From Yuukianura sp. NJ FZ-2021 (Eukaryota): 64,000 nt of DNA. Each line of letters starts with the position of its first letter. The first letter of the stretch is position 1. The notes beneath the pieces were generated by a model that worked only from the letters and a program-made list of their open reading frames with translations, did no database searches and was not told where the DNA came from. The stretch is from positions 9,858,001-9,922,000 of the forward strand of contig CM102286.1 in NCBI GenBank assembly GCA_046563655.1. Direction: 5' to 3'. A program made the position numbers and the translations under genes. Positions 1 to 59,632 of this stretch are shown piece by piece.

Positions 1-12
1 GCCAAAAATGAG

Positions 13-9543: not shown

Positions 9544-9665
9544 ATGGCTCCATCAAAGTTACAATTGGCCGTACGTTTGCTTGTGTTGCGCCGTATTCGA
9601 AACAAAGTGATTCAAAGGAAGAAAAGAAGGTCAGAGTACATTCGGCCCATTTTTTTGAACCGATT
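9544..9665 (+). pseudogene. N-terminal stub of a Harbinger-type transposase
   Basis: MAPSKLQLAVRLLVLRRIRNKVIQRKKRRSEYIRPIFLNR resembles the basic RRRxWVRPxxxxR leader of Harbinger transposases; it is convergent with the MADF ORF. Confidence 0.5.
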
Positions 9666-10090: not shown

Positions 10091-10391
10091 GATGCTTGAT
10101 GTTATCAAAACTAACTTTGATCAGAAAACGAACAATTGTTTCCAAAAAAGCAAGTTTGCTCTGCTCGTGCTTCTTCAATAATTGCTTCCATCCCTACTTT
10201 CAAAAGAGCACGGCAAGAGCAGGAGCACGGTAAGCAAAACGGGAAGTTAGGATGCATTTCCTTGCTCTGTCGTTGCATTGCCAAAGCACGGCACGTGCAA
10301 GGCACAAGTAAGTTAGGATCGGTGATTTTTAACAAAAACAGCGCAGCAAAGCATCGTCAAGGCAGCAGCACGGTAAGTCCGTACCGAGCGT

Positions 10392-19900: not shown

Positions 19901-22900
19901 GGAGATGTTAAAGCCATTGTCAACAGGAAGAAACGGCTGGATTACTGTAACCTATTTTTGAGTATTCAATTCTTACCAAATAAATGGAAATGGTATCAGT
20001 TGTTTGAGAACATACAAAAACCCGTTTTAACGCTCAACGCAAATTAACAAATCAAAAATGCATTGTTCACAGCAACAGTATATAAACGGTCTTAAACGAA
20101 TGAAGCTGTTGAAATTCTACAGCGATGTTTTTATTTCGGAAACTTAGGTCAAATTTCAGGCACAACTTTTTAGAAATAAAAACGCTGGTAAAATGTTTTT
20201 TAAACCCTAACATTCTAACCGCAACTTATTGAGTTTGGTAAAGTGTACCAGAAAAATTATACTTAGATGCGGGAAAATGAGGCCTGACAAGAGTTTTCTT
20301 TGAGTGTAAATTTAAAACTAAAGCTTAAACATATTTATGTTGTTAAATATGACCAAGGTTGATGTAGAATTTCAACGCAACATATCCATAGTATGGTTAC
20401 GTTTGAGACCAGTTAAAATTGAGTGACGTAACGACAAATGGTTCGTAGAGTTTTGACTGAAACAGGATGGAGATGTTAAAACCATTGTCAACAGGAAGAA
20501 ACGGCTGGATTACTGTAACCTATTTTTGAGTATTCAATTCTTACCAAATAAATGGAAATGGTATCAGTTGTTTGAGAACATACAAAAACCCGTTTTAACG
20601 CTCAACGCAAATTAACAAATCAAAAATGCATTGTTCACAGCAACAGTATATAAACGGTCTTAAACGAATGAAGCTGTTGAAATTCTACAGCGATGTTTTT
20701 ATTTCGGAAACTTAGGTCAAATTTCAGGCACAACTTTTTAGAAATAAAAACGCTGGTAAAATGTTTTTTTAAACCCTAACATTCTAACCGCAACTTATTG
20801 AGTTTGGTAAAGTGTACCAGAAAAATTATACTTAGATGCGGGCAAATGAGGCCTGACAAGAGTTTTCTTTGGGTGTAAATTTAAAACTAAAGCTTAAACA
20901 TATTTATGTTGTTAAATATGACCAAGGTTGATGTAGAATTTCAACGCAACATATCCATAGTATGGTTACGTTTGAGACTTCAGTTAAAATTGAGTGACGT
21001 AACGACAAATGGTTCGTAGAGTTTTGACTGAAACAGGATGGAGATGTTAAAGCCATTGTCAACAGGAAGAAACGGCTGGATTACTGTAACCTATTTTTGA
21101 GTATTCAATTCTTACCAAATAAATGGAAATGGTATCAGTTGTTTGAGAACATACAAAAACCCGTTTTAACGCTCAACGCAAATTAACAAATCAAAAATGC
21201 ATTGTTCACAGCAACAGTATATAAACGGTCTTAAACGAATGAAGCTGTTGAAATTCTACAGCGATGTTTTTATTTCGGAAACTTAGGTCAAATTTCAGGC
21301 ACAACTTTTTAGAAATAAAAACGCTGGTAAAATGTTTTTTTAAACCCTAACATTCTAACCGCAACTTATTGAGTTTGGTAAAGTGTACCAGAAAAATTAT
21401 ACTTAGATGCGGGAAAATGAGGCCTGACAAGAGTTTTCTTTGAGTGTAAATTTAAAACTAAAGCTTAAACATATTTATGTTGTTAAATATGACCAAGGTT
21501 GATGTAGAATTTCAACGCAACATATCCATAGTATGGTTACGTTTGAGACCAGTTAAAATTGAGTGACGTAACGACAAATGGTTCGTAGAGTTTTGACTGA
21601 AACAGGATGGAGATGTTAAAGCCATTGTCAACAGGAAGAAACGGCTGGATTACTGTAACCTATTTTTGAGTATTCAATTCTTACCAAATAAATGGAAATG
21701 GTATCAGTTGTTTGAGAACATACAAAAACCCGTTTTAACGCTCAACGCAAATTAACAAATCAAAAATGCATTGTTCACAGCAACAGTATATAAACGGTCT
21801 TAAACGAATGAAGCTGTTGAAATTCTACAGCGATGTTTTTATTTCGGAAACTTAGGTCAAATTTCAGGCACAACTTTTTAGAAATAAAAACGCTGGTAAA
21901 ATGTTTTTTTAAACCCTAACATTCTAACCGCAACTTATTGAGTTTGGTAAAGTGTACCAGAAAAATTATACTTAGATGCGGGAAAATGAGGCCTGACAAG
22001 AGTTTTCTTTGAGTGTAAATTTAAAACTAAAGCTTAAACATATTTATGTTGTTAAATATGACCAAGGTTGATGTAGAATTTCAACGCAACATATCCATAG
22101 TATGGTTACGTTTGAGACCAGTTAAAATTGAGTGACGTAACGACAAATGGTTCGTAGAGTTTTGACTGAAACAGGATGGAGATGTTAAAACCATTGTCAA
22201 CAGGAAGAAACGGCTGGATTACTGTAACCTATTTTTGAGTATTCAATTCTTACCAAATAAATGGAAATGGTATCAGTTGTTTGAGAACATACAAAAACCC
22301 GTTTTAACGCTCAACGCAAATTAACAAATCAAAAATGCATTGTTCACAGCAACAGTATATAAACGGTCTTAAACGAATGAAGCTGTTGAAATTCTACAGC
22401 GATGTTTTTATTTCGGAAACTTAGGTCAAATTTCAGGCACAACTTTTTAGAAATAAAAACGCTGGTAAAATGTTTTTTTAAACCCTAACATTCTAACCGC
22501 AACTTATTGAGTTTGGTAAAGTGTACCAGAAAAATTATACTTAGATGCGGGAAAATGAGGCCTGACAAGAGTTTTCTTTGAGTGTAAATTTAAAACTAAA
22601 GCTTAAACATATTTATGTTGTTAAATATGACCAAGGTTGATGTAGAATTTCAACGCAACATATCCATAGTATGGTTACGTTTGAGACCAGTTAAAATTGA
22701 GTGACGTAACGACAAATGGTTCGTAGAGTTTTGACTGAAACAGGATGGAGATGTTAAAACCATTGTCAACAGGAAGAAACGGCTGGATTACTGTAACCTA
22801 TTTTTGAGTATTCAATTCTTACCAAATAAATGGAAATGGTATCAGTTGTTTGAGAACATACAAAAACCCGTTTTAACGCTCAACGCAAATTAACAAATCA

Positions 22901-25900
22901 AAAATGCATTGTTCACAGCAACAGTATATAAACGGTCTTAAACGAATGAAGCTGTTGAAATTCTACAGCGATGTTTTTATTTCGGAAACTTAGGTCAAAT
23001 TTCAGGCACAACTTTTTAGAAATAAAAACGCTGGTAAAATGTTTTTTTAAACCCTAACATTCTAACCGCAACTTATTGAGTTTGGTAAAGTGTACCAGAA
23101 AAATTATACTTAGATGCGGGAAAATGAGGCCTGACAAGAGTTTTCTTTGAGTGTAAATTTAAAACTAAAGCTTAAACATATTTATGTTGTTAAATATGAC
23201 CAAGGTTGATGTAGAATTTCAACGCAACATATCCATAGTATGGTTACGTTTGAGACCAGTTAAAATTGAGTGACGTAACGACAAATGGTTCGTAGAGTTT
23301 TGACTGAAACAGGATGGAGATGTTAAAACCATTGTCAACAAGGAAGAAACGGCTGGATTACTGTAACCTATTTTTGAGTATTCAATTCTTACCAAATAAA
23401 TGGAAATGGTATCAGTTGTTTGAGAACATACAAAAACCCGTTTTAACGCTCAACGCAAATTAACAAATCAAAAATGCATTGTTCACAGCAACAGTATATA
23501 AACGGTCTTAAACGAATGAAGCTGTTGAAATTCTACAGCGATGTTTTTATTTCGGAAACTTAGGTCAAATTTCAGGCACAACTTTTTAGAAATAAAAACG
23601 CTGGTAAAATGTTTTTTTAAACCCTAACATTCTAACCGCAACTTATTGAGTTTGGTAAAGTGTACCAGAAAAATTATACTTAGATGCGGGCAAATGAGGC
23701 CTGACAAGAGTTTTCTTTGGGTGTAAATTTAAAACTAAAGCTTAAACATATTTATGTTGTTAAATATGACCAAGGTTGATGTAGAATTTCAACGCAACAT
23801 ATCCATAGTATGGTTACGTTTGAGACTTCAGTTAAAATTGAATGACGTAACGACAAATGGTTCGTAGAGTTTTGACTGAAACAGGCTGTAGATGTTAAAG
23901 CCGTTGTCAACAAGGAGAAGCGGCTGGATTACTGTAACCTTATTTTTGAGTATTCAATTCTTACCAAATAAATGGAAATGGTATCAGTTGTTTGAGAACA
24001 TACAAAAACCCGTTTTAACGCTCAACGCAAATTAACAAATCAAAAATGCATTGTTCACAGCAACAGTATATAAACGGTCTTAAACGAATGAAGCTGTTGA
24101 AATTCTACAGCGATGTTTTTATTTCGGAAACTTAGGTCAAATTTCAGGCACAACTTTTTAGAAATAAAAACGCTGGTAAAATGTTTTTTTAAACCCTAAC
24201 ATTCTAACCGCAACTTATTGAGTTTGGTAAAGTGTACCAGAAAAATTATACTTAGATGCGGGAAAATGAGGCCTGACAAGAGTTTTCTTTGAGTGTAAAT
24301 TTAAAACTAAAGCTTAAACATATTTATGTTGTTAAATATGACCAAGGTTGATGTAGAATTTCAACGCAACATATCCATAGTATGGTTACGTTTGAGACCA
24401 GTTAAAATTGAGTGACGTAACGACAAATGGTTCGTAGAGTTTTGACTGAAACAGGATGGAGATGTTAAAACCATTGTCAACAGGAAGAAACGGCTGGATT
24501 ACTGTAACCTATTTTTGAGTATTCAATTCTTACCAAATAAATGGAAATGGTATCAGTTGTTTGAGAACATACAAAAACCCGTTTTAACGCTCAACGCAAA
24601 TTAACAAATCAAAAATGCATTGTTCACAGCAACAGTATATAAACGGTCTTAAACGAATGTAGCTGTTGAAATTCTACAGCGATGTTTTTATTTCGGAAAC
24701 TTAGGTCAAATTTCAGGCACAACTTTTTAGAAATAAAAACGCTGGTAAAATGTTTTTTTAAACCCTAACATTCTAACCGCAACTTATTGAGTTTGGTAAA
24801 GTGTACCAGAAAAATTATACTTAGCTGAGGGCAAATGAGGCCTGACAAGAGTTTTCTTTGAGTGTAAATTTAAAACTAAAGCTTAAACATATTTATGTTG
24901 TTAAATATGACCAAGGTTGATGTAGAATTTCAACGCAACATATCCATAGTATGGTTACGTTTGAGACTTCAGTTAAAATTGAATGACGTAACGACAAACG
25001 GTTCGTAGAGTTTTGACTGAAACAGGCTGTAGATGTTAAAGCCGTTGTCAACAAGGAGAAGCGGCTGGATTACTGTAACTTATTTTTGAGTATTCAATTC
25101 TTACCAAATAAATGGAAATGGTATCAGTTGTTTGAGAACATACAAAAACCCGTTTTAACGCTCAACGCAAATTAACAAATCAAAAATGCATTGTTCACAG
25201 CAACAGTATATAAACGGTCTTAAACGAATGAAGCTGTTGAAATTCTACAGCGATGTTTTTATTTCGGAAACTTAGGTCAAATTTCAGGCACAACTTTTTA
25301 GAAATAAAAACGCTGGTAAAATGTTTTTTTAAACCCTAACATTCTAACCGCAACTTATTGAGTTTGGTAAAGTGTACCAGAAAAATTATACTTAGATGCG
25401 GGCAAATGAGGCCTGACAAGAGTTTTCTTTGGGTGTAAATTTAAAACTAAAGCTTAAACATATTTATGTTGTTAAATATGACCAAGGTTGATGTAGAATT
25501 TCAACGCAACATATCCATAGTATGGTTACGTTTGAGACTTCAGTTAAAATTGAATGACGTAACGACAAACGGTTCGTAGAGTTTTGACTGAAACAGGCTG
25601 TAGATGTTAAAGCCGTTGTCAACAAGGAGAAGCGGCTGGATTACTGTAACTTATTTTTGAGTATTCAATTCTTACCAAATAAATGGAAATGGTATCAGTT
25701 GTTTGAGAACATACAAAAACCCGTTTTAACGCTCAACGCAAATTAACAAATCAAAAATGCATTGTTCACAGCAACAGTATATAAACGGTCTTAAACGAAT
25801 GAAGCTGTTGAAATTCTACAGCGATGTTTTTATTTCGGAAACTTAGGTCAAATTTCAGGCACAACTTTTTAGAAATAAAAACGCTGGTAAAATGTTTTTT

Positions 25901-28900
25901 TAAACCCTAACATTCTAACCGCAACTTATTGAGTTTGGTAAAGTGTACCAGAAAAATTATACTTAGCTGAGAGCAAATGAGGCCTGACAAGAGTTTTCTT
26001 TGAGTGTAAATTTAAAACTAAAGCTTAAACATATTTATGTTGTTAAATATGACCAAGGTTGATGTAGAATTTCAACGCAACATATCCATAGTATGGTTAC
26101 GTTTGAGACCAGTTAAAATTGAGTGACGTAACGACAAATGGTTCGTAGAGTTTTGACTGAAACAGGATGGAGATGTTAAAGCCATTGTCAACAGGAAGAA
26201 ACGGCTGGATTACTGTAACCTATTTTTGAGTATTCAATTCTTACCAAATAAATGGAAATGGTATCAGTTGTTTGAGAACATACAAAAACCCGTTTTAACG
26301 CTCAACGCAAATTAACAAATCAAAAATGCATTGTTCACAGCAACAGTATATAAACGGTCTTAAACGAATGAAGCTGTTGAAATTCTACAGCGATGTTTTT
26401 ATTTCGGAAACTTAGGTCAAATTTCAGGCACAACTTTTTAGAAATAAAAACGCTGGTAAAATGTTTTTTTAAACCCTAACATTCTAACCGCAACTTATTG
26501 AGTTTGGTAAAGTGTACCAGAAAAATTATACTTAGCTGAGAGCAAATGAGGCCTGACAAGAGTTTTCTTTGAGTGTAAATTTAAAACTAAAGCTTAAACA
26601 TATTTATGTTGTTAAATATGACCAAGGTTGATGTAGAATTTCAACGCAACATATCCATAGTATGGTTACGTTTGAGACCAGTTAAAATTGAGTGACGTAA
26701 CGACAAATGGTTCGTAGAGTTTTGACTGAAACAGGATGGAGATGTTAAAGCCATTGTCAACAGGAAGAAACGGCTGGATTACTGTAACCTATTTTTGAGT
26801 ATTCAATTCTTACCAAATAAATGGAAATGGTATCAGTTGTTTGAGAACATACAAAAACCCGTTTTAACGCTCAACGCAAATTAACAAATCAAAAATGCAT
26901 TGTTCACAGCAACAGTATATAAACGGTCTTAAACGAATGAAGCTGTTGAAATTCTACAGCGATGTTTTTATTTCGGAAACTTAGGTCAAATTTCAGGCAC
27001 AACTTTTTAGAAATAAAAACGCTGGTAAAATGTTTTTTTAAACCCTAACATTCTAACCGCAACTTATTGAGTTTGGTAAAGTGTACCAGAAAAATTATAC
27101 TTAGCTGAGAGCAAATGAGGCCTGACAAGAGTTTTCTTTGAGTGTAAATTTAAAACTAAAGCTTAAACATATTTATGTTGTTAAATATGACCAAGGTTGA
27201 TGTAGAATTTCAACGCAACATATCCATAGTATGGTTACGTTTGAGACTTCAGTTAAAATTGAATGACGTAACGACAAATGGTTCGTAGAGTTTTGACTGA
27301 AACAGGCTGTAGATGTTAAAGCCATTGTCAACAGGAAGAAGCGGCTGGATTACTGTAACTTATTTTTGAGTATTCAATTCTTACCAAATAAATGGAAATG
27401 GTATCAGTTGTTTGAGAACATACAAAAACCCGTTTTAACGCTCAACGCAAATTAACAAATCAAAAATGCATTGTTCACAGCAACAGTATATAAACGGTCT
27501 TAAACGAATGAAGCTGTTGAAATTCTACAGCGATGTTTTTATTTCGGAAACTTAGGTCAAATTTCAGGCACAACTTTTTAGAAATAAAAACGCTGGTAAA
27601 ATGTTTTTTTAAACCCTAACATTCTAACCGCAACTTATTGAGTTTGGTAAAGTGTACCAGAAAAATTATACTTAGCTGAGAGCAAATGAGGCCTGACAAG
27701 AGTTTTCTTTGAGTGTAAATTTAAAACTAAAGCTTAAACATATTTATGTTGTTAAATATGACCAAGGTTGATGTAGAATTTCAACGCAACATATCCATAG
27801 TATGGTTACGTTTGAGACCAGTTAAAATTGAGTGACGTAACGACAAATGGTTCGTAGAGTTTTGACTGAAACAGGATGGAGATGTTAAAGCCATTGTCAA
27901 CAGGAAGAAACGGCTGGATTACTGTAACCTATTTTTGAGTATTCAATTCTTACCAAATAAATGGAAATGGTATCAGTTGTTTGAGAACATACAAAAACCC
28001 GTTTTAACGCTCAACGCAAATTAACAAATCAAAAATGCATTGTTCACAGCAACAGTATATAAACGGTCTTAAACGAATGAAGCTGTTGAAATTCTACAGC
28101 GATGTTTTTATTTCGGAAACTTAGGTCAAATTTCAGGCACAACTTTTTAGAAATAAAAACGCTGGTAAAATGTTTTTATGGAGATGTTAAAGCCATTGTC
28201 AACAGGAAGAAACGGCTGGATTACTGTAACCTATTTTTGAGTATTCAATTCTTACCAAATAAATGGAAATGGTATCAGTTGTTTGAGAACATACAAAAAC
28301 CCGTTTTAACGCTCAACGCAAATTAACAAATCAAAAATGCATTGTTCACAGCAACAGTATATAAACGGTCTTAAACGAATGAAGCTGTTGAAATTCTACA
28401 GCGATGTTTTTATTTCGGAAACTTAGGTCAAATTTCAGGCACAACTTTTTAGAAATAAAAACGCTGGTAAAATGTTTTTAAACCCTAACATTCTAACCGC
28501 AACTTATTGAGTTTGGTAAAGTGTACCAGAAAAATTATACTTAGCTGAGAGCAAATGAGGCCTGACAAGAGTTTTCTTTGAGTGTAAATTTAAAACTAAA
28601 GCTTAAACATATTTATGTTGTTAAATATCACCAAGGTTGATGTAGAATTTCAACGCAACATATCCATAGTATGGTTACGTTTGAGACCAGTTAAAATTGA
28701 GTGACGTAACGACAAATGGTTCGTAGAGTTTTGACTGAAACGGGATGGAGATGTTAAAGCCATTGTCAACAGGAAGAAACGGCTGGATTACTGTAACCTA
28801 TTTTTGAGTATTCAATTCTTACCAAATAAATGGAAATGGTATCAGTTGTTTGAGAACATACAAAAACCCGTTTTAACGCTCAACGCAAATTAACAAATCA

Positions 28901-30198
28901 AAAATGCATTGTTCACAGCAACAGTATATAAACGGTCTTAAACGAATGAAGCTGTTGAAATTCTACAGCGATGTTTTTATTTCGGAAACTTAGGTCAAAT
29001 TTCAGGCACAACTTTTTAGAAATAAAAACGCTGGTAAAATGTTTTTTTAAACCCTAACATTCTAACCGCAACTTATTGAGTTTGGTAAAGTGTACCAGAA
29101 AAATTATACTTAGCTGAGAGCAAATGAGGCCTGACAAGAGTTTTCTTTGAGTGTAAATTTAAAACTAAAGCTTAAACATATTTATGTTGTTAAATATGAC
29201 CAAGGTTGATGTAGAATTTCAACGCAACATATCCATAGTATGGTTACGTTTGAGACCAGTTAAAATTGAGTGACGTAACGACAAATGGTTCGTAGAGTTT
29301 TGACTGAAACAGGATGGAGATGTTAAAGCCATTGTCAACAGGAAGAAACGGCTGGATTACTGTAACCTATTTTTGAGTATTCAATTCTTACCAAATAAAT
29401 GGAAATGGTATCAGTTGTTTGAGAACATACAAAAACCCGTTTTAACGCTCAACGCAAATTAACAAATCAAAAATGCATTGTTCACAGCAACAGTATATAA
29501 ACGGTCTTAAACGAATGAAGCTGTTGAAATTCTACAGCGATGTTTTTATTTCGGAAACTTAGGTCAAATTTCAGGCACAACTTTTTAGAAATAAAAACGC
29601 TGGTAAAATGTTTTTTAAACCCTAACATTCTAACCGCAACTTATTGAGTTTGGTAAAGTGTACCAGAAAAATTATACTTAGCTGAGAGCAAATGAGGCCT
29701 GACAAGAGTTTTCTTTGAGTGTAAATTTAAAACTAAAGCTTAAACATATTTATGTTGTTAAATATGACCAAGGTTGATGTAGAATTTCAACGCAACATAT
29801 CCATAGTATGGTTACGTTTGAGACCAGTTAAAATTGAGTGACGTAACGACAAATGGTTCGTAGAGTTTTGACTGAAACAGGATGGAGATGTTAAAGCCAT
29901 TGTCAACAGGAAGAAACGGCTGGATTACTGTAACCTATTTTTGAGTATTCAATTCTTACCAAATAAATGGAAATGGTATCAGTTGTTTGAGAACATACAA
30001 AAACCCGTTTTAACGCTCAACGCAAATTAACAAATCAAAAATGCATTGTTCACAGCAACAGTATATAAACGGTCTTAAACGAATGAAGCTGTTGAAATTC
30101 TACAGCGATGTTTTTATTTCGGAAACTTAGGTCAAATTTCAGGCACAACTTTTTAGAAATAAAAACGCTGGTAAAATGTTTTTTTAAACCCTAACATT
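13951..30198. repeat. Tandem satellite, 569-571-bp unit, about 29 units (left array)
   Basis: The unit aacttattgagtttggtaaagtgtaccag...taacattctaaccgc repeats head to tail. Two subtypes (gagaccagtt vs gagacttcagtt) and one internally deleted unit at ~28178. Confidence 0.98.
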
Positions 30199-30410
30199 AG
30201 TAGCATGGTTGGTGTGTGCAAGAACGTAAAACGTTCTAGTTTCGAAAGTTGATTCATCGAGATAACTCAAACAAGAATGCAAGGTGAAGGTCCAAAGTAT
30301 TTGGCGGTTGAGTCATAGAATTAGGTCGTTAATAAGTCACATAAGAAGGTTAAGTTCAATGATGGCATTTTAATATCTTTGGAAATATTATTTGGTACAA
30401 AGTCTGATCT

Positions 30411-30562
30411 GTTTTCAAGGACGGAGGTGACTCACACCTTACGTGCACACGCGTGAACAAAGTCCAAAATCGTTTTTGTGTGGTCCAAAGTCCGACCCTT
30501 TTTCAAGGACGGTGGTGAGTCATGTCCTTAGGTGCACACGTGGGAACAAAGTCCAGAGTCGT
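30411..30562 (+). repeat. Two ~60-bp imperfect direct repeats (period ~89 bp) in the viral left terminus
   Basis: ttttcaaggacggaggtgactcacaccttacgtgcacacgcgtgaacaaagtcca vs ttttcaaggacggtggtgagtcatgtccttaggtgcacacgtgggaacaaagtcca. Confidence 0.85.
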
Positions 30563-30625
30563 ATGTTCATCGTCATTTCAATTTGTACTATTAATAGCCG
30601 GCCCTACAATTAGGTTTTGCGCATG

Positions 30626-30662
30626 TATATATATAGTAACGCTTGAGTTGTGAGAAGTCAGT
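30626..30662 (+). promoter_or_regulatory. Putative Pol II core promoter of the viral IAP (TATA plus arthropod TCAGT initiator)
   Basis: TATATATA at ~30626-30635, TCAGT at 30658-30662 about 30 bp downstream, ATG at 30672. Confidence 0.6.
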
Positions 30663-30671
30663 CAAAGGAAT

Positions 30672-31582
30672 ATGGAGGGCCTCATGAGTTATGAGGGGAG
30701 ACTACAAACGTTTCAGAACGCTCAAGTAATATGGCCATTGAATTTTGTGGCCCCGGAAGCATTTTCGTTTGCGGGATTTTTCTACCTCGGAGTAGATGAC
30801 AAGGTGGGTAATTTTCAACTTTTTCTAAAAAAGTAAAAAATTTGGAATAATTTGTTTTCTGTTGAACAGGTTGCGTGTCCATATTGCCGGGGTGTCGTTG
30901 GGGAATGGGTGGTTGGTGATGAGCCGTTGCTGGAACACCGGAAACATTTCCCACGCTGTCCGTATGTTGTAGTCATGACCGGTCTATTATCCGGGGTCGG
31001 GTTTGTTACCGTTCCGGATGTAACTGGGACCCACGGAGCCGAAGCGACCGGAGCAGCAAGGATTGATGTTTTCGAATATGTGACCACAGGAACCGGTATG
31101 CCCGGCACGGTAGCTTCTGATGTTTCCACCGACCCTGGCCAGATGGGAATAGATGTTGCCGGTGCTGGGACGAGAGGAATCGAGATGGCCGCAGCAGCCG
31201 CACCCGAAACCGACATGGCGGGAAGAACCAGGCCCGAAGCCGACATTCCCAGCGATGGAGGAGGAGGAGCCGATTTGGCCGGGTCGGCAACACGTTACGT
31301 GACAGAAATAACTAGCCTCGAAACTGATATTCCCAGTGTGGGTGGAACTGATGTTGCCGGGACATCTGAACATGTTTCAAGTGCGGCATCCGGCGTGTTG
31401 GCTACTGGTGTTACCAGAGACGACTCTGGCAACAGTATTACTTGTAAGATTTGTTGGGACAAAGAAGCCTGCGACGTATGCCATGTAAACATTTGGTTGC
31501 TTGTCCTACATGTTCATTGTCATTAAGAAGTTGTGCAGTTTGCCGAGAACCTATACTAATTAGATTAAGGGTGTATACTTAG
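30672..31582 (+). pseudogene. iap: Inhibitor of apoptosis (single BIR, low-complexity linker, RING); one intron; frameshift in the RING
   Basis: Exon 1 (30672-30803) RLQTF..WP..AGFFYLGVDDK; GT-AG intron 30804-30869; exon 2 VACPYC..W..GDEPLLEHRKHFPRC. RING CKICWD / PCKHLVACPTC..CAVCR is split by a frameshift near 31477. AATAAA at ~31689. Confidence 0.92.
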
Positions 31583-31814
31583 TCAAGTGTTGGTATTTTG
31601 TGTTGAGTTAGGTTAGCTAGGTTTTAGCTAGGTTTTAGGCTTTAGTTAGGTTTTGTTGCTGTGAGTTCGATTCCTACATTGAGAAATGAATAAAAAAAAA
31701 ATTCGATTCTTTGAAGTGTTTTCGTTTGATCTACGTTTTGTCATTTACTATTTAATGAAGTGAAATTTTTGAGTAAATAAACATTTGTTGTGAGAGCTAA
31801 GAAGAAGAAGAAGT

Positions 31815-34800
31815 ATGGAAGGGATCCGGAGATTTAAGTGTGACAATTGTGGCGACCGTTTCGATTCGCAAGATTCCTTTTGGGATCACGCTTTTGAACA
31901 TCATGTTTACGACCTTCGCATACCACGTCAAGGTATTTCTCTCAAAAAAAGAAAACGTACGCTTTTGGGTATCTTATAAAGTTGTGTAAATTTTGTTAGA
32001 GTGGGAACCAATAGACGGAGAAGTTGCGGGTCCAAGTCGTCCCAGGGTACCAGTCAATGACGAATCTGGAGCAAGGAATTTGGAAAGACCATTAGACCCA
32101 GTTGTAGATGCAATTTTAGAAGGGCTGCTTGATTATGAAGGTATTAGCAACAGAAAAAAAAAGAGTGATATGGATGGTTAGTCTTGAAAATAAAAGAAAT
32201 GGATTTTTCTGTAGAAGAATTGTCAGAAATTCAACAATCAGCCATGAATGAAGATTTGTCAAACTTTCGCGAGAGGTTCTGCTCACAATGTGCCATCAAG
32301 TTTGAGAATGCAGGAGAGCTCGACTACCATCGGTTTGAGTTTCATCGCGAACTTTACATTGATCAAATGGAAGGTCAACAGTGGGGAGGAACTCAAAGTG
32401 GGCTCGAGATTCGAGAAGTTCGGAGGGCTGGACGTCGGCGAAATGGCGCTGACGGTGGTATTGTACGTGAATTCGAGGTGGATTTGACTCCACAACTCTT
32501 TGCAGATGTGACGGGTGTGATGCGAAGTACAGCTAACGCGCTGACAACTTTGGTGGAAGGACTTCTTCAGGAGTTTGGGGGCATGAAGTTGATTTGTACG
32601 TTGGTTGCAGAGATGACAAGAACATCAAGGGAACGACCAGGTGAAGCCGAGGTGGAACGGTTTCCGTTCAACAGTTTTCTACATGGATGTTTTCATCAGA
32701 GTATGATTCAAACTATTTTGAGGCAAATGTATTCTAAAATGAGATTGTCTATGGAATCATTCGTTCACCACGGTTCGGGCTGGAAATTGAAGCGCTTCTT
32801 GGTACTTCAACTGAGAGTTTTCGAGTATAGGATGGACCGAGGGTCAAGTTGGATTCCGACTCCAAAAGTCATTCGCGACAAACGATGCATCATAAATATT
32901 CGTAACAATGACGAATTCTGCTTCAAGTACGCTATCATGGCAGAACTCAACCCACTTTACAAAAACCCAAATGTAGACTGGTACGCCTTTAACAATCCTA
33001 AAAATTATCAGACGGATCTTGGTAAGATTGACTGGGATTGTATAAATTTTCCGATGACCATCGCTCAACTTGACAAGTTCCATCACTTCAATCCACAGAT
33101 TGCTGTAAATGTGTTTGGTTACGAACCTCGAGACGAACTTGCTCCAAGTGTGAAAGGGAAAAAGAAGATTGATATTTTTCCTCTCTACGTATTTAGAGAA
33201 GCAAGAGCTAAAACTGTTGATTTGTTATTGTTAATCGACGGAAACAAGTCTCATTACACACTTTTGCGGCAAAGTGATTATAATCCTACGGAGGGCCTGT
33301 CTCGATTACTAGGAACAGGTGAACGGTGGTATGAAAAGTTTGTGTGTCGTTTTTGTATGTGTTTTTCAAAAAGCGAAAAGAAATTGCAAAATCACCAAAA
33401 GTTTTGTGCGGCGTTGGACGTACAACGTGTCGTTTTTCCAACCGAAATATACTTTACGTCAAGATTCCTCGTGCAACGTCTTCCTGTGCCCTATGTCATA
33501 TACTTAGATTTTGAAGCACTGTTAGTTCCAACAGACGGGATTGGTACTCGACAGATTGGTGACGTTTATAATGAACATTTAGACTGTGGGTGGTCAATGA
33601 GTATCATTGGGCCGGACGGTTATCTGGCGGACCGTGTAGTGACATTTTGTGGTCCGAATGCTGCACTAAGGTTGGTTGACGAACTCGTGTCTGTTGCCGG
33701 AAAGATATATCCAATTTTGAAAGAAGATGTTGGCCTCGACACACGATGGACAGAATCTGACTATGCTCACCTTTTGCTGGCTTCAACTCACTGTATTCAT
33801 TGTGGACTGGAGTTTGTGGAAGGGGTTGACACTAAGTGCATTGACCACTGCCATATTACATCAACCATTCGTGGAGTGAGTTGCGGTCCTTGTAACCTGA
33901 ACGCCCAAGTTTGTTCATTCATTCCAGTTGTTTGTCATGGTTTTCGACATTATGATTCGAAATTTATTGTACAAGCGTTGCGTGCTAGTACAATTAAATC
34001 TGTGGAAGTTTTGGCGAGCAGCAGCACCGAGAAGTTTACTGCGCTTCGGTTGACAACCCATGGAGATCATGTTCTGCGAATGATTGATTCGTATCAGTTT
34101 ATTAGTGCGAGCTTAGCAGAGCAAGTCAAAATGCTTGCCAAAGAAGGAAAAGATAAATTTGGTGTGACTTGTCACCATTTTCAACAGTACGGAAGTAAAA
34201 TTGAATTACTTTTAAGAAAAGGGGTTTACCCTTACAGTTACTTTGACTCCATGGAGCGATTTGATGAAACGTGTTTGCCACCTGCCGAAAAATGGAAAAG
34301 CGATTTGACTGGAAAATCCATCAGTCCTGAAGATTTGGAACATGCGCATACGGTTTGGCGGGAATTTGGCTGTCAAACATTGAGAGATTATCACAACTTG
34401 TACGTTTCTCTTGATGTTTGCCTCCTGGCGGATTGTTTCCAGAATATGAAAAGAAGTATGCTCGAGAGTTTCCGCCTGGATCCGGCGCACTATCTCACTC
34501 TTCCAGGAATAGCATACGACGCAGCAATGTTGGCAGGAAAAGTGGAGTACGAGTATCTGGATGAGATTGACAAGTACATGTATTTTGAACGCGGGATTCG
34601 GGGTGGAATTTGTTCTGTCGGACTACGTTATGCAAAAGCAAATAACCCTTACTTGTGGGATTTGTATGACCCGGCGCTTCTATTGAGTTACATTTGTTAC
34701 TGGGATGCAAACGCCTTGTACGCAACTTGTTTGAGGAACTACGTTCCGTGGAAAGATTTTGTGTAGGAAATGTCACTGGAAAACAGAACAAGAAATTTGG

Positions 34801-36085
34801 ATAGTGTCGTGAAGATGATCATGGATTTGGAGGATTGTGGTCCGGAGGGATTAGTTTTGGAGGTAGATTTGGATTATCCGCAAGAATTGCATGATTCTCA
34901 CAATGACTACCCATTAGCAGTACAGCGAAGTGAAATAACATACGATTGGCTCTCCGACTACACAAAAGAAGTTTTGAAGAACGTGGGAGCTACACCTGGA
35001 TCTTGCAAAAAAACAAAACTTTTCGGAACATTGTGTAACAAAAGAAACTACATTGTCCATTATCGACTTTTAAAGTTGTTTTTGGAGCTTGGACTGAAAC
35101 TTGTGAAGGTTCACAGAGCCATACGGTTTACACAAGCTCCATTATTTCGTGTATACACGGACATTTGTATAACACGTCGACGCGAAGCGACGAATCCGGT
35201 GGATAAGAACTTTTACAAGGCCATGGGAAACATTTTGGCGGGAAAAGTTTACCAAAATGTCCGGAAATATAGGCGGATCAACATTGCATTATCAAGAGAG
35301 AAGATGAGAGAATACGCCCGAAAGCCAACCGTTGAGGACGTCAAAATCATTCATGATGAGTGTGTTTTGTTTGTGATGAAAAAGTTGGCTGCTAGGCTAG
35401 ACAAACCTATTTTTGTTGGACAGTGCATTTTGGATGATTCCAAATGCAGAATGTGCAGTTTTTACTATAAGTGGTTAAAGCCGCGATATGGAGACAACAT
35501 GAGGCTGATGTATACGGATACGGATAGCTTCTTACTTCACATAAAAACGGAAGATGTTTATGCAGATATAGCTGAAAGTGTGAGGAGGAATGAAGGCGTC
35601 TTTGACACATCAAAGTACGACAGAGGAAATGAAAAATTTGGATATTTGTGGAGTGACCAATTTGAAGGGGTTGGTGGTTGCTTCAAGGACGAATGTGCCA
35701 ACGAAGTGATTTCGGAAGCAATAGCATTGAAGCCAAAAATGTATGCAATCAAGATGTTGAAGGACGATGGGACGCAAACTCAACTGAAGAAGGCAAAAGA
35801 AACAGTTCGCTCTGTTGTCGAGAATGAATTGGATTTTGAAGATTACAAAAAAGTTTTAGAAAACGGACGGTTCAAGTCTTGTAGTATGAATACAATTCGA
35901 AGTTTAAATCACCGTTTATATACAACTACAATGTACAAAAAAGTTTGTCAGCATATGAAGATAAGAGTTTTTATTTGTCTCCAATTGATTCATTAAGATT
36001 TGGTCATTATAGAATTGAATTAGAAAAGAATTTGCATCAAATTGTAGACGATTTGGAAGAAGATGAATCAAGCCAATTAGATTAA
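31815..36085 (+). pseudogene. polB: Protein-primed family B DNA polymerase with N-terminal C2H2 fingers and an inserted endonuclease VII/HNH-like domain
   Basis: Exo motifs YLDFEA and HGFRHYDS; Pol motifs YWDANALY, KAMGNILAGK, YTDTDS; insert CIHC..DHCH...RGVSCGPCN. In-frame TAG at 34764-34766, frameshift at the A-run near 35940, and predicted introns 31933-31999 and 32141-32214. Confidence 0.93.
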
Positions 36086-36128
36086 ATGTCCTTCCAGTTA
36101 GTAGTTGTTTGGGGTTTGATTTGTCAAG

Positions 36129-36788
36129 ATGGAAATTCAATGTTCATTGCAGCATCCGTTTGTCATGGTGTTGGCCGGTCCTACACAAAGTGGAAAAAGT
36201 ACATTGATTAAAAAAGTTTTGGAACGCATAGACGAAGTTGTTGAGCCAAAAATCAAGCGTATAATCTACTGTTATGCCGAGAATGAGCCGGATTTTGCAA
36301 AAAGTTTAAAAGGAGTTCACAGTGGAAAAGAAATTGAAATTGATTTTCGCCAAGGTATGAATCAAATTGATGTTGACATTGGAAACAAGACGCCAACTCT
36401 TGTTGTGTTGGATGACTTTATGGAAGACCTTGGATCATCCTTGGATATTTGTAGATTGGTAACTCGGGGTTCCCATCACCGTTCACTGTCTCTTATGATT
36501 ACGATTCAAAATTTTTTCTTTAAAGGATGTAGGAATTTGACTTTAAGTGCAAAATATGTTGCATTATTTCGAAATCCAAGGGATAAGACTATAATAAAAT
36601 ATTTGGGACGACAAATGAATGGCGGAAAAGCAAATTCGACGTTAGAAGAAGCATTTGAGGATGCTACAAAAAATAAGCCAAATAGCTATTTATTTTTAGA
36701 TATGTCTCAAAGTCAAAATGATGACTTTCGAATAAGATCAAATGTATTTGCAGATCCAGAATCTTGTCTAGTATATTTGAAAAAGTAA
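36129..36788 (+). CDS. Polinton-type genome-packaging ATPase (A32/FtsK-like)
   Basis: Walker A GPTQSGKS, Walker B LVVLDD, GSHHRSLS..ITIQN, FRNPRD and YLFLD motifs. Confidence 0.92.
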   Translation: MEIQCSLQHPFVMVLAGPTQSGKSTLIKKVLERIDEVVEPKIKRIIYCYAENEPDFAKSLKGVHSGKEIEIDFRQGMNQIDVDIGNKTPTLVVLDDFMEDLGSSLDICRLVTRGSHHRSLSLMITIQNFFFKGCRNLTLSAKYVALFRNPRDKTIIKYLGRQMNGGKANSTLEEAFEDATKNKPNSYLFLDMSQSQNDDFRIRSNVFADPESCLVYLKK

Positions 36789-36794
36789 CATACC

Positions 36795-37145
36795 TTAGTT
36801 TCGTTTCAATTTTGAAAGTCCTTCTGTGAGACAATCAAATAAATGGATTGGAATCACAGCACTAGATGCAGCATCGTAAACATTTTTAATATGTAAATGT
36901 GTGAGGGGTCCTTGGTCGTTTCCTTGTTCGTTGCCAATGTATAGCTGCCAACCATCTTCCAAATTAACTCGTGGTGGCGGATGTGGTTTAGGAAATTCTT
37001 GACGAACTTCAACTACCATTGCCAAAGATGTGACTTTGCGAGGAAGTTTGGGAATACGAACACGTTTGCGTTGCTTCTTTTCTTGGAGTTCTCCTGTGAT
37101 AAGATTTGGATTTAGGTTAAGAAAATCTTGAATTGGAGAATCCAT
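36795..37145 (-). CDS. Hypothetical viral protein with a basic NLS-like stretch
   Basis: Open frame MDSPIQDFLN..KKQRKRVRIPKLPRK.. tightly packed between the ATPase and the integrase; no family recognised. Confidence 0.5.
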   Translation of the reverse strand: MDSPIQDFLNLNPNLITGELQEKKQRKRVRIPKLPRKVTSLAMVVEVRQEFPKPHPPPRVNLEDGWQLYIGNEQGNDQGPLTHLHIKNVYDAASSAVIPIHLFDCLTEGLSKLKRN

Positions 37146-37303
37146 TTCGGATGACTTTTGTTCTGTTTTGTTGAGGTTACAGTTACAAGAAAATGTTTCA
37201 CAAACAGTAATTGTAGTAGTAGAATTTTTCTTGAAACAAAAATTTGCAAATGAACGCCAGAGAGAGCAAATTTGACATGAGCTCATGTCACGGAAAGTTA
37301 AAC

Positions 37304-38292
37304 TCAAGACTGAGGAATGCGTTGAAGTTCTTCGTTGTAAAATATTCCAAATATGTGTTCACCTTTGCCATCTTTTAACTTGTAGGTTACGGGTTGCGTA
37401 TTACAAACTTCAACAATTTGAAAAATTTCTTTTGTCCAGCTTTGGGCATATCCCTTTTCAAAAATCATTTTAGTTTTACTAATTATTACGGAGTCTCCGA
37501 CGTTGAAGTTAGGACGTTTGTGTTTTGCTTGGCTTTGTTTTGGTGAGTATCCGTACAAGTTTAGAAATACTTGAGTTTTTGTGTCTTCATTGACTTGATT
37601 TGGCGTAACATTTGATGGAACGATGATATGTGTTGTTGTATTATTATTATTATTATTATTATTAGTATTAGTATATTTACAATACTTTGCAAAACATCTA
37701 AAAATTTATTAGTCTGATTGTGTGTCATATATCTTGCCAACCTTCTCATTAATGTTTGGTTAAATCTTTCAACTATTACTGCCTTCAGTTCGGATCTAGT
37801 ACTAAAGTATGAAACAGAATGTTGTTTTAAAAGTTGTTTAACATTTTGATTTAAAAACTCTTTCCCTTCATCAAATTGAATTGACTTGGGAGGGCCTCTT
37901 TTCTTAAAAATTTTTTGCAACGCGTTTGCTACTTGACTTCCAGTTTTCTTTTTTAAAGGAATGACGTCAGCGACTTTAGAAAAACCGTCAATACAAGTTA
38001 ACAAGAAGTTATGATTCGTATTCGACTCGGAATACTTTGAAATGTCGATTAGGTCAATTATATACTGATATCTAATAGACGGTATAAAAACTTTTCGTCT
38101 TTTGTATCGTTTTCTAGCAGGTTTGTGAAGAGTATAAGCTGGAAGTTGTTCTAATGCTTTTAGTACACTTCTTTTGCTGAATCCATTTTTCTTTTGAGCT
38201 TGAAAAGTTCCTTCTAATCCAGAAAATGCAAAAGTTGAACGAGGATTAACGTATTCTTTACGAATTTTCTCTGTCAACTGTTTCTGTGCCAT
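37304..38292 (-). pseudogene. Polinton retroviral-like (rve/DDE) integrase, frameshifted
   Basis: YTLHKPARKRY, IIDLID, QFDEGKEF, VERFNQTL, YNNTYHRSIK, FNVGDSVIIS..FEKGY..WTKEIF..FYNEELQ. An (ATT)n insertion at ~37640-37672 breaks the frame. Confidence 0.93.
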
Positions 38293-38436
38293 TGTACAGA
38301 TTAAGTCTGACTACAAGAATTGGAGATGCAACAGTATATATCGTGGAGGTATATAAACGAGGTTAATCATTTGAAGTCTCAACATGAAACTGTTCACACC
38401 ACGTACAAAACAAGGCCGTGTGGTTGTTGGATCATC

Positions 38437-38772
38437 ATGTCTACAACTGTGAAAGAAAATTCTGATTTTTTGAGATATCTAATCAAGTGTTCACCCCAAC
38501 AAAGAAAAGCGTTAATTAAATATGCGAGTAGTGGTGAAGTCAAAAGTATTTGTGAATGTGTTTTGAATATATATAAAAAAAATGTTGGACTAAAAAAGTC
38601 GTCAATTGAAAAATTACGTCCATTCAAAAGAGCAATACTTTCAATTGTCAAGAGAAGAGGTTCATCGTTGGTCAAAAAGAAAAAACTTTTGTCTCAAAAG
38701 GGTGGTGCAATAATTCCTTTAATTTTAGGATCCATGATTCCAAGCGTTTTATCAGCAATTTTACAAAAATGA
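38437..38772 (+). CDS. Polinton/adintovirus small basic virion core-like protein
   Basis: Basic protein with ICECVLNI..L..KKKKLLSQKGG followed by a hydrophobic tail AIIPLILGSMIP; the GG/hydrophobic junction is an adenain-type cleavage context. Confidence 0.7.
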   Translation: MSTTVKENSDFLRYLIKCSPQQRKALIKYASSGEVKSICECVLNIYKKNVGLKKSSIEKLRPFKRAILSIVKRRGSSLVKKKKLLSQKGGAIIPLILGSMIPSVLSAILQK

Positions 38773-39285
38773 AACGAATGCGTCTAATTTCCGAATTAGA
38801 CTACAAGAACCTATACGAAGAACCAAAAAAGAAAAAAGTTCCCTTGAGTCATTAAAGACTGCTTATGGAAATGAAGATTTGGAACACAAGAAGCAAACAA
38901 TTTTATCTGTGGACGATGTACCAGATGACATCAAAGCTCTGTTGTATTATGATTTTTCTCGTCGACTATTACAAAAACGAAAACTTTTGTCAAATCGTCC
39001 AGTTTTAGTAAAATCTGTTTCTCCAGCAAATCCAAATTTGACATCAAACTATCCAAACAGCAATAGTAACAACCAATCCAACTTGTTACAAAAAATTGAG
39101 TATGTTACTGAACCATACATTTTAAAACAAGTACCAGGAAAGGATGCTAAAAAGTTTGTAAACTTTATGAAATTGAGTAATATTAGTTGGAATTCGGATT
39201 TGGAAATTTTAATTGATAATCAGCGTATTCCTTCTTCAAATATCATCAATGTCCTCTCCCAGTTTATTTCATTTAAAAAGCAACT
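38769..39285 (+). pseudogene. Conserved Polinton hypothetical protein, frameshifted and truncated by the satellite
   Basis: ATGA overlap with the upstream stop; MKRMRLIS.. / IL..PDDIKALLY.. / ISWN..EILID...IPSSNII pattern; the frame runs into satellite DNA at 39286. Confidence 0.6.
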
Positions 39286-42200
39286 TAACCGCAACTTATT
39301 GAGTTTGGTAAAGTGTACCAGAAAAATTATACTTAGATGCGGGCAAATGAGGCCTGACAAGAGTTTTCTTTGGGTGTAAATTTAAAACTAAAGCTTAAAC
39401 ATATTTATGTTGTTAAATATGACCAAGGTTGATGTAGAATTTCAACGCAACATATCCATAGTATGGTTAGGTTTAAGACTTCAGTTAAAATTGAGTGACG
39501 TAACGACAAATGGTTCGTAGAGTTTTGACTGAAACAGGCTGGAGATGTTGAAGCCATTGTCAACAAGAAGAAACGGCTGGATTACTGTAACTTATTTTTG
39601 AGTATTCAATTCTTACCAAATAAATGGAAATGGTATCAGTTGTTTGAGAACATACAAAAACCCGTTTTAACGCTCAACGCAAATTAACAAATCAAAAATG
39701 CATTGTTCACAGCAACAGCATATAAACGGTCTTAAACGAATGTAGCTGTTGAAATTCTACAGCGATGTTTTTATTTCGGAAACTTAGGTCAAATTTCAGC
39801 CACAACTTTTTAGAAATAAAAACGCTGGTAAAATGTTTTTTTAAACCCTAACATTCTAACCGCAACTTATTGAGTTTTATTAAAATGTACCAGAAAAAGT
39901 ATACTTAGATGCGGGCAAATGAGGCCTGACAAGAACTTTCTTTGAGTGTAAATTTAACACTAAAGCTTAAACATATTTATGTTGTTAAATATGACCAAGG
40001 TTGTTGTAGAATTTCAACGCAACATATCCATAGTATGGTTAGGTTTAAGACTTCAGTTAAAATTGAGTGATGTAACGACAAATGGTTCGTAGAGTTTTGA
40101 CTGAAACAGATTGTAGATGTTAAAGCCGTTGTCGACAAGGAGAAGCGGCTGGATTACTGTAACTTATTTTTGAGTATTCAGTTCTTACCAAATAAATGGA
40201 AATGGTATCAGTTGTTTGAGAACATACAAAAACCCGTTTTAACGCTCAACGCAAATTAACAAATCAAAAATGCATTGTTCACAGCAACAGTATATAAACG
40301 GTCTTAAACGAATGAAGCTGTTGAAATTCTACAGCGATGTTTTTATTTCGGAAACTTAGGTCAAATTTCAGGCACAACTTTTTAGAAATAAAAACGCTGG
40401 TAAAATGTTTTTTAAACCCTAACATTCTAACCGCAACTTATTGAGTTTGATAAAGTGTACCAGAAAAATTATACTTAGCTGAGGGCAAATGAGGCCTGAC
40501 AAGAGTTTTCTTTGAGTGTAAATTTAAAACTAAAGCTTAAACATATTTATGTTGTTAAATATGACCAAGGTTGATGTAGAATTTCAACGCAACATATCCA
40601 TAGTATGGTTACGTTTGAGACCAGTTAAAATTGAGTGACGTAACGACAAATGGTTCGTAGAGTTTTGACTGAAACAGGATGGAGATGTTAAAGCCATTGT
40701 CAACAGGAAGAAACGGCCGGATTACTGTAACCTATTTTTGAGTATTCAATTCTTACCAAATAAATGGAAATGGTATCAGTTGTTTGAGAACATACAAAAA
40801 CCCGTTTTAACGCTCAACGCAAATTAACAAATCAAAAATGCATTGTTCACAGCAACTGTATATAAACGGTCTTAAACGAATGTAGCTGTTGAAATTCTAC
40901 AGCGATGTTTTTATTTCGGAAACTTAGGTCAAATTTCAGGCACAACTTTTTAGAAATAAAAACGCTGGTAAAATGTTTTTTAAACCCTAACATTCTAACC
41001 GCAACTTATTGAGTTTGGTAAAGTGTACCAGAAAAAGTATACTTAGATGCGGGCAAATGAGGCCTGACAAGAGTTTTCTTTGAGTGTAAATTTAAAACTA
41101 AAGCTTAAACATATTTATGTTGTTAAATATGACCAAGGTTGATGTAGAATTTCAACGCAACATATCCATAGTATGGTTAGGTTTAAGACTTCAGTTAAAA
41201 TTGAGTGATGTAACGACAAATGGTTCGTAGAGTTTTGACTGAAACAGACTGTAGATGTTAAAGCCGTTGTCGACAAGGAGAAGCGGCTGGATTACTGTAA
41301 CTTATTTTTGAGTATTCAATTCTTACCAAATAAATGGAAATGGTATCAGTTGTTTGAGAACATACAAAAACCCGTTTTAACGCTCAACGCAAATTAACAA
41401 ATCAAAAATGCATTGTTCACAGCAACAGTATATAAACGGTCTTAAACGAATGAAGCTGTTGAAATTCTACAGCGATGTTTTTATTTCGGAAACTTAGGTC
41501 AAATTTCAGGCACAACTTTTTAGAAATAAAAACGCTGGTAAAATGTTTTTTTAAACCCTAACATTCTAACCGCAACTTATTGAGTTTGATAAAGTGTACC
41601 AGAAAAATTATACTTAGCTGAGGGCAAATGATGCCTGACAAGAGTTTTCTTTGAGTGTAAATTTAAAACTAAAGCTTAAACATATTTATGTTGTTAAATA
41701 TGACCAAGGTTGATGTAGAATTTCAACGCAACATATCCATAGTATGGTTAGGTTTAAGACTTCAGTTAAAATTGAGTGATGTAACGACAAATGGTTCGTA
41801 GAGTTTTGACTGAAACAGACTGTAGATGTTAAAGCCGTTGTCGACAAGGAGAAGCGGCTGGATTACTGTAACTTATTTTTGAGTATTCAATTCTTACCAA
41901 ATAAATGGAAATGGTATCAGTTGTTTGAGAACATACAAAAACCCGTTTTAACGCTCAACGCAAATTAACAAATCAAAAATGCATTGTTCACAGCAACAGT
42001 ATATAAACGGTCTTAAACGAATGAAGCTGTTGAAATTCTACAGCGATGTTTTTATTTCGGAAACTTAGGTCAAATTTCAGGCACAACTTTTTAGAAATAA
42101 AAACGCTGGTAAAATGTTTTTTTAAACCCTAACATTCTAACCGCAACTTATTGAGATTGATAAAGTGTACCAGAAAAATTATACTTAGCTGAGGGCAAAT

Positions 42201-43088
42201 GAGGCCTGACAAGAGTTTTCTTTGAGTGTAAATTTAAAACTAAAGCTTAAACATATTTATGTTGTTAAATATGACCAAGGTTGATGTAGAATTTCAACGC
42301 AACATATCCATAGTATGGTTACGTTTGAGACCAGTTAAAATTGAGTGACGTAACGACAAATGGTTCGTAGAGTTTTGACTGAAACAGGATGGAGATGTTA
42401 AAGCCATTGTCAACAGGAAGAAACGGCCGGATTACTGTAACCTATTTTTGAGTATTCAATTCTTACCAAATAAATGGAAATGGTATCAGTTGTTTGAGAA
42501 CATACAAAAACCCGTTTTAACGCTCAACGCAAATTAACAAATCAAAAATGCATTGTTCACAGCAACTGTATATAAACGGTCTTAAACGAATGTAGCTGTT
42601 GAAATTCTACAGCGATGTTTTTATTTCGGAAACTTAGGTCAAATTTCAGGCACAACTTTTTAGAAATAAAAACGCTGGTAAAATGTTTTTTTAAACCCTA
42701 ACATTCTAACCGCAACTTATTGAGTTTGGTAAAGTGTACCAGAAAAAGTATACTTAGATGCGGGCAAATGAGGCCTGACAAGAGTTTTCTTTGAGTGTAA
42801 ATTTAAAACTAAAGCTTAAACATATTTATGTTGTTAAATATGACCAAGGTTGATGTAGAATTTCAACGCAACATATCCATAGTATGGTTAGGTTTAAGAC
42901 TTCAGTTAAAATTGAGTGATGTAACGACAAATGGTTCGTAGAGTTTTGACTGAAACAGACTGTAGATGTTAAAGCCGTTGTCGACAAGGAGAAGCGGCTG
43001 GATTACTGTAACTTATTTTTGAGTATTCAATTCTTACCAAATAAATGGAAATGGTATCAGTTGTTTGAGAAAGTACAAAAACCCATTT
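39286..43088. repeat. Tandem ~570-bp satellite, about 6.7 units (right array)
   Basis: Same unit as 13951-30198, resuming in register at taaccgcaacttattgag, with several private variants. Confidence 0.97.
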
Positions 43089-43220
43089 TAGTTTTGCTTG
43101 AAAAACTAAAACCTCTTGGTGTTGTATTTTCAGAATTAGACCGCCTTAAACGCATTCAAAGTTCAATGGGCCATTTCGTTTTAAGGGTAAAATCGTCCGT
43201 AGTTTTCAGTTAATTGAACA

Positions 43221-45830: not shown

Positions 45831-45860
45831 AAACGATAAATTTTGCGATGTATTTAATTG

Positions 45861-59618: not shown

Positions 59619-59632
59619 GTTGTCATAGCAAC
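59619..59632. promoter_or_regulatory. X-box (RFX binding site) upstream of the ciliary gene
   Basis: GTTGTCATAGCAAC, a near-consensus palindromic X-box, ~210 bp upstream of the EFHC2-like ATG. Confidence 0.8.

Follow-up and report, generated by a model that had tools for sequence, protein, structure and literature searches.

A probable anti-apoptotic IAP accessory gene with a predicted intron in its BIR domain, carried by a decayed Maverick/Polinton element in arthropod DNA

The window (the whole stretch of DNA that was analysed, 64,000 nucleotides in length) contains a fragment of a Maverick/Polinton element whose leftmost gene encodes an IAP with one BIR domain, one RING domain and a predicted intron within the BIR. 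We consider it probable that this gene is an accessory anti-apoptotic IAP, combining a BIR with a RING E3 ligase, that belongs to a single lineage among the Maverick/Polinton (adintovirus-like) elements of arthropods. What the window holds is a dead copy, a truncated relic in which the RING is frameshifted, the DNA polymerase gene carries a stop codon and a frame change, the right part of the element is missing, and neither a terminal inverted repeat (TIR) nor a target-site duplication (TSD) is present. A first-pass annotation, made from the sequence alone, had described a captured counter-defence gene of an infective virus. That reading was right in outline, but it overstated both the novelty of the gene and what can be concluded from its intron and its presence.

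The element fragment occupies positions 30199–39285 on the plus strand (~9.09 kb), starting with AG at its left end and stopping on the right at its point of truncation. It resides inside one monomer of a 569-bp satellite, which flanks the insert at 13952–30198 and again at 39286–43090. Monomer position 374 is the last one in the left flank of the satellite and position 376 the first one in the right flank, and the array is thus interrupted in phase with an irregularity of at most one base. When the satellite flanks were compared, no TSD was found at the insert ends, nor was there an inverted repeat pairing the two ends as a TIR would. The IAP start codon is located 473 bp inside the insert, counted from the junction at 30198/30199, which agrees with the earlier placement of the gene within 500 bp of the element terminus. 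Because the gene lies inside an insert that interrupts the satellite in phase, its membership in the mobile unit is supported. The idea that the satellite is the element’s own terminal repeat was also entertained, and was ruled out by the direct, in-phase orientation of the flanks. The satellite array itself comprises about 35 monomers, mostly 96–100% identical to each other, and holds a 302-bp partial-unit duplication at 27876–28480.

Three genes identify the insert as a Maverick/Polinton element of the adintovirus-like type. The gene for a protein-primed PolB (31816–35996, plus strand) begins with short zinc-finger leader exons, which are followed by PolB proper (32169–35996); Pfam recognizes DNA_pol_B_2 and Endonuclease_7 domains in its product, and 103 relatives were recovered (best E 1.6e-190). 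Downstream are an FtsK/A32-type packaging ATPase (36120–36788, plus strand), with AAA and Adeno_IVa2 Pfam matches, and, encoded on the opposite strand, an rve integrase (37316–38310, minus strand; Pfam rve, E 2.6e-11). The IAP had been called the first gene of a Polinton-like virus. It is indeed the gene nearest to the left end and lies upstream of PolB, but a Polinton-like virus in the strict sense is excluded by the protein-primed PolB and the rve integrase. Strict Polinton-like viruses are described in the abstract of PMC5499653 as having a capsid module and as usually lacking both of these proteins. For the 11 translated ORFs from the insert that were compared with Pfam, no match was obtained to a double or single jelly-roll capsid protein or to an adenain-type protease, a negative result that concerns a right-truncated copy, given that other copies continue beyond 39280. 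Likewise, no Rfam family reached its gathering score in the region 30000–39500.

The genes to the right of the IAP show several signs of decay. PolB contains an in-frame TAG at 34764–34766, within a conserved stretch and without splice signals around it, and changes frame near 35933–35942, where other copies differ by a one-letter indel at 35936. The integrase also changes frame relative to that of a related locus, L001, across a stretch rich in (AAT)n/(ATT)n at about 37610–37690; this change may reflect either a lesion or a short intron.

The IAP gene begins with an ATG at 30672. Its first exon (30672–30803, plus strand) consists of 44 codons, ends with the residues GVDDK and encodes the N-terminal half of the BIR. 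A predicted intron of 66 nucleotides follows in phase 0 (30804–30869), starting with GTGGGT, ending with TTGAACAG (..AACAG) and containing an in-frame TAA. The second exon, in its first reading frame (30870–31475), starts with VACPYCRG and encodes the C-terminal half of the BIR (30870–30968), then the linker, and lastly the opening CxxC of the RING. The two exons match the Pfam BIR profile contiguously across the intron, exon 1 covering profile positions 1–36 and exon 2 covering positions 37–69 (E 2.5e-8). Furthermore, a gap of 22–23 columns falls exactly on the intron-coded residues, both in a BLASTP alignment with a Folsomia candida IAP and in a MAFFT alignment with 10 cellular IAPs, and the zinc ligands of the BIR (C-x2-C-x16-H-x6-C), as read from the translation, are intact. 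Because the two profile halves abut, the gap coincides with the intron-coded residues and the ligands are all present, the intron is well supported by homology, and the first-pass annotation’s claim of a single BIR split at DDK/VAC in phase 0 is borne out. The intron had also been taken as a sign of the route by which the gene was captured, a question on which it says little, since the PolB leader, too, shows a candidate intron, of 69 nt.

The RING is of the IAP type (zf-C3HC4_3, E 4.7e-8) but is split over two frames in the window copy. Stop-to-stop ORFs reveal that the frame entered at 30870 carries the first CxxC (31443–31454, within CKICWDKEACD) and then runs into a stop codon at 31524–31526. 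The rest of the domain (PCKH-LVAC-PTC-SLSLRS-CAVC, ending CAVCR) is encoded in a second frame at 31481–31579, with the spacing C-x-H-x3-C-x2-C-x6-C-x2-C, and this frame (31481–31582) closes with the stop codon at 31580–31582. The break is placed at 31476–31480 by the ORF frames and by indels in other copies. Owing to this frameshift, the window copy cannot produce the RING or the full protein. The description of the gene as a single-BIR plus RING IAP therefore holds insofar as both domains are found, but not for an uninterrupted frame leading from the one to the other.

Between the BIR and the RING lies a linker of 155 residues that is rich in G, T, A, V, S and D, with G, T and A together making up 68 of the 155 residues (44%). 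It had been called repetitive, which is correct with respect to composition and to one short motif, but no regular period was found, all offsets from 1 to 40 remaining below a z value of 2.5. The motif D[VIML][APTF][GSE], which was defined post hoc after looking at the sequence, occurs eight times, compared with an average of 0.28 in shuffled linkers, and none of 5000 shuffles reached eight. An 11-sequence alignment hinted that the linker might be a decayed second BIR; this candidate was rejected as unsupported when neither a profile for the last BIR nor one for BIRs in general returned any score for the linker.

Candidate expression signals are present around the gene, each as a motif match only. 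These are a TATA-like run, TATATATATA, at 30626–30635, an initiator-like TCAGT at 30658–30662, whose A follows the first base of the TATA run at a distance of 34 nt and which precedes the ATG at 30672, and an AATAAA at 31689–31694, 107 nt after the stop codon. The promoter and polyadenylation motifs named in the first-pass annotation were thus recovered in this form.

The protein is only distantly related to anything in the databases searched. A phmmer search of 1.84 billion representatives yielded 1337 matches at E ≤ 1e-3 (best 1.8e-25) with identities of 30–52%, and no close relative was found among these matches. Word-indexed protein searches with exon 2 or with the intron read-through protein returned no match. 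The nearest named proteins are mostly cellular IAPs of arthropods (tick, Limulus, Folsomia candida, Macrobrachium, Uloborus and Strigamia), and IAPs of amphioxus and Lingula are also among the top named matches. The F. candida protein XP_021966658.1, which has two BIRs and a RING, is an instructive example. In a BLASTP alignment of 99 columns, the intron-coded gap among them, the window BIR is 39% identical to it (47% by phmmer), and it is of the same class as its first BIR; the RINGs are 48% identical and have the CAVCR ending in common. Unlike arthropod cellular IAPs of the IAP1 type, however, the window protein has no second BIR, carries the low-complexity linker of 155 residues instead, and is encoded within a mobile element.

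The 150 best library matches provide a basis for classifying the BIR. Of the 67 proteins with two BIRs, 54 have their first BIR as the one closest to the window BIR, and of the 64 with three BIRs, 52 have their middle one, by which comparison the window BIR is best assigned to the arthropod IAP1-BIR1 (DIAP1-BIR1)/XIAP-BIR2 type. Processed effector caspases and antagonists of the Reaper type are the partners bound by this penultimate-BIR class. The overall layout of one BIR and a C-terminal RING is shared with ML-IAP/Livin (BIRC7), whose BIR structures match at E ~1.6e-6, whereas the window BIR resembles the penultimate rather than the last BIR of multi-BIR IAPs. A BIR phylogeny had been proposed as a means of separating host from viral origin. 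Arthropod cellular IAPs are the nearest named relatives, but in a FastTree analysis of 406 domains over 77 columns the window BIR (highest identity 53%) falls in no supported clade. Capture of the gene from a host is therefore plausible at most.

If the gene is an anti-apoptotic accessory gene, as we consider probable, its mode of action might be as follows. The gene occupies the accessory slot between the left end of the element and PolB. Where a copy is intact, host RNA polymerase II would transcribe the gene, and a single splicing event would follow. The BIR of the resulting protein would then bind partners bearing an IBM, either processed effector caspases or antagonists of the Reaper type, and the RING would ubiquitylate the partners so bound. 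An infected cell, or one in which the element is reactivating, might thereby stay alive while the element replicates. The transcription, splicing, binding partners and anti-apoptotic effect are all inferred from the gene structure and its homologies. A more ambitious form of this proposal, which we regard as unlikely, posits a springtail-type adintovirus lineage that is currently or recently active, whose spliced, host-derived IAP was cut down to a BIR of the effector-caspase-binding type plus a RING, and whose compact TATA/Inr promoter, with three AP-1/TRE-like sites in front of it, would be induced by the host stress (JNK) response. In this form of the proposal, the D-[VIML]-[AP]-[GS] motifs of the linker could serve as caspase decoy sites.

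The sites invoked in this proposal reside in the region upstream of the gene (30309–30562), which contains an 88-bp tandem duplication (30393–30562, 81% identity) and three TGASTCA motifs of the AP-1/TRE-like kind at 30309, 30428 and 30516. All three fall within a span of 214 bp (30309–30522) that lies upstream of the TATA run, and two of them stem from the duplication. Across the whole window, the motif occurs eight times against 8.6 expected, which is the level of chance. The same motifs would also suit a different function for an intact protein, namely that of a BIR-RING E3 ligase redirecting innate-immune or stress signalling (as DIAP2 and the cIAPs do in signalling of the IMD/NF-kB or JNK type) or degrading a host restriction factor, and not mainly as a caspase inhibitor. 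The domain layout points in this direction as well, as the single BIR, an arrangement shared by only 4 of the 150 best library matches, is joined to a long and probably disordered linker in place of a second BIR. In addition, the best match among solved structures is a BIR of cIAP1 (7qgj_A, E 2.5e-10), followed by BIRs of NAIP, XIAP and Livin, and cIAP1 is a signalling ligase. We nevertheless judge this alternative distinctly unlikely, given that the BIR belongs to the class described above as binding effector caspases and Reaper-type proteins.

Surveys of related elements were used to establish how widely the IAP is distributed. The nearest PolB proteins, from metagenomes, are 46–49% identical to that of the window. 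A search with a PolB alignment supplied 14 IMG/VR loci and, from 492 confirmed relatives, the 80 best metagenomic ones. A profile was built from 404 BIR segments of the phmmer matches, which scores the window exons at 8e-14 and 6e-10 (the latter value for exon 1). No BIR was found in any of the 94 PolB-related loci (~609 kb, six frames; best E 0.9), although this absence is weak evidence for most of the loci because only 15 of the 80 metagenomic ones have at least 1 kb of sequence upstream of PolB. In the reverse comparison, none of 17 BIR-bearing IMG/VR loci carries the window PolB. Of these, 15 are on contigs of ~98–232 kb and two on 6-kb contigs, and their BIR proteins are 26–33% identical to the window protein. 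Scans of IMG/VR with single proteins, either PolB or IAP exon 2, produced no match. Because BIRs are missing from the 94 PolB loci, L001 included, and the window PolB is missing from the 17 BIR loci, the IAP appears to be a lineage-specific accessory gene rather than a core Maverick gene.

The metagenomic locus L001, the closest of the relatives with a collinear layout, is the most informative of them. It is collinear with 32005–39022 of the window, sharing in order the leader exon, PolB, the ATPase, orfX (minus strand), the integrase (minus strand), orfY and orfZ. The ATPase is 52% identical to that of L001, whose protein matches Pox_A32, and the integrase, read in two frames, is 48–59% identical. 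The 2.3-kb left arm of L001, by contrast, contains no BIR and has nothing in common with 30199–32004 of the window; its positions 1–2357 hold small minus-strand ORFs, for which the sole Pfam match is a weak one to CRAL_TRIO_2. Because the left arm of L001 is so different, the stretch ahead of PolB seems to be an accessory region of variable content.

Further copies of the element were sought in Logan contigs of four DNA runs, three from one sample of an organism A and one from an organism B of another study, which were placed on 30199–39283 at a likeness of at least 85%. In each of the four runs, all 30 bins of the insert are covered, those of the IAP included; contig depth is here no measure of copy number, and the best-matching run may be the assembly’s own data. 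Within IAP exon 1, the variant at 30781 is covered by up to five distinct contigs (runs X3 and X4), and the IAP region 30199–31700 is itself repeated in the runs. The intron-less joint 30803>30870 is absent from the DNA contigs of all four. At the RING break, contigs differ by indels that are not divisible by three, at 31478 in all four runs and at 31482 in two, and the lengths of the other copies at this point are compatible with a single frame. Because several diverged copies show such indels, the element family carries the IAP and the window copy is a mutant. A check proposed at the outset, that other copies of the element should carry the gene, thus came out in its favour, with contigs covering it in runs from organism A and from a second organism. 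Contigs of organisms A and B also pass position 39280 into one common non-satellite sequence, from which it follows that fuller copies extend further to the right and that the window copy is truncated. A complete copy was not seen in these runs, and 30199 is therefore only the provisional left terminus of the family. In run X2, from organism B, contigs are ~99% like parts of the element within 32449–38556 (for example, with 0–6 differences per 440–640 nt); such a match between the organisms is explained either by closely related hosts or by recent horizontal spread.

These surveys bear on a further alternative, by which the gene is a passenger, part of an IAP gene that one Maverick lineage acquired from its host, is useless to the element and is decaying neutrally. 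The frameshift in the window copy would be expected of such a passenger, as would the absence of the gene from all 94 sampled PolB relatives and the state of the linker in other copies, where some contigs skip or replace most of it (joints 30948>31446 and 30973>31431) or skip 48 nt (31214>31263). Opposed to this are the zinc ligands of the BIR and the ligands of the RING, all of which are intact in the sequence, the plausible spacing of the TATA, Inr and polyadenylation motifs, and the retention of the region in several diverged copies whose lengths at the break are compatible with one frame. Adintoviruses that are independent of this lineage also carry homologues of IAP or Bcl2, as reported in the text of PMC8502044. 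On balance, a useless passenger is quite improbable. Very improbable is the last alternative, that the IAP lies outside the Maverick because the true boundary is downstream of it or because a second small element is nested at the end: the left end of the window copy does lack a TIR and TSD, the left arm of L001 is unrelated to 30199–32004 and some organism B contigs diverge after matching the first 40–100 bp (loose ends at 30237 and 30300), but a single in-phase interruption of the satellite holds both the IAP and PolB, GC content is 0.42 over 30001–34000 versus 0.33 in the satellite, 30199–31700 is repeated in the runs in its own right, and one contig spans 31580–32963, though no more than 3 nt of this contig lie in the IAP and it may come from the same locus as the window.

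An accessory anti-apoptotic gene in this position, the reading we favour, is of a kind already in print, having been reported for adintoviruses as IAP and Bcl2 homologues in 2021 and again in a 2026 preprint. In adintoviruses, accessory ‘Oncoid’ genes are typically found upstream of PolB, and both Bcl2 and IAP homologues have been observed among them, according to the text of Starrett et al. 2021 (PMC8502044). Two IAP labels and a map named ‘Orchesella springtail’ appear in the text of Supplementary Fig. S2 of that paper, and a figure legend of the 2026 preprint lists a baculoviral-type IAP among the ORFs of a leafhopper adintovirus. The window element resembles the adintoviruses described in PMC8502044 in its protein-primed PolB, rve integrase and FtsK-type ATPase and in the position of its accessory gene, a homologue of anti-apoptotic genes, between the element end and PolB, but differs in that the window copy is a truncated and mutated endogenous relic. 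With the IAPs of large insect DNA viruses, such as the baculoviruses, the window gene shares the combination of BIR and RING in a protein encoded by an arthropod DNA virus.

Whereas two BIRs and a lack of introns are usual in the IAPs of those large viruses, the gene described here has one BIR and a predicted intron inside it. Should the splice be confirmed by RNA, we know of no earlier viral IAP with an intron-interrupted BIR. A literature search, not designed to exclude such a case, brought up no adintovirus IAP that is described as having an intron, and neither an intron in the BIR nor the layout of one BIR plus RING was encountered in the text of PMC8502044. Anti-apoptotic accessory genes are one argument that Mavericks and adintoviruses act as real viruses, for which the survival of the cell is essential, and not as plain transposons. 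To these genes the present locus contributes a case from an arthropod (springtail-like) whose gene structure is clear, with a single predicted intron and fewer BIRs than usual. The IAP appears to be lineage-specific and is present in several copies. The picture drawn in 2021 is unchanged, and the window copy is inert.

Outside the insert and its satellite, the window consists of animal DNA rich in repeats. A second tandem array at 7215–9324 consists of 7.9 copies of a 269-bp unit (96% identity) and is adjoined by an ORF with a MADF domain (9302–10120, minus strand). Retroelement debris is found at 1–5426, 45465–46640 and 53821–57190, including a DUF5641 BEL/Pao tail, a LINE endonuclease and reverse transcriptase (RT), and further RT fragments, and an ORF with an RFX DNA-binding domain is located at 55724–57190 on the minus strand. 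Likely host genes, encoding a CCCH zinc finger and a DM10 domain, are present at 58217–60937.
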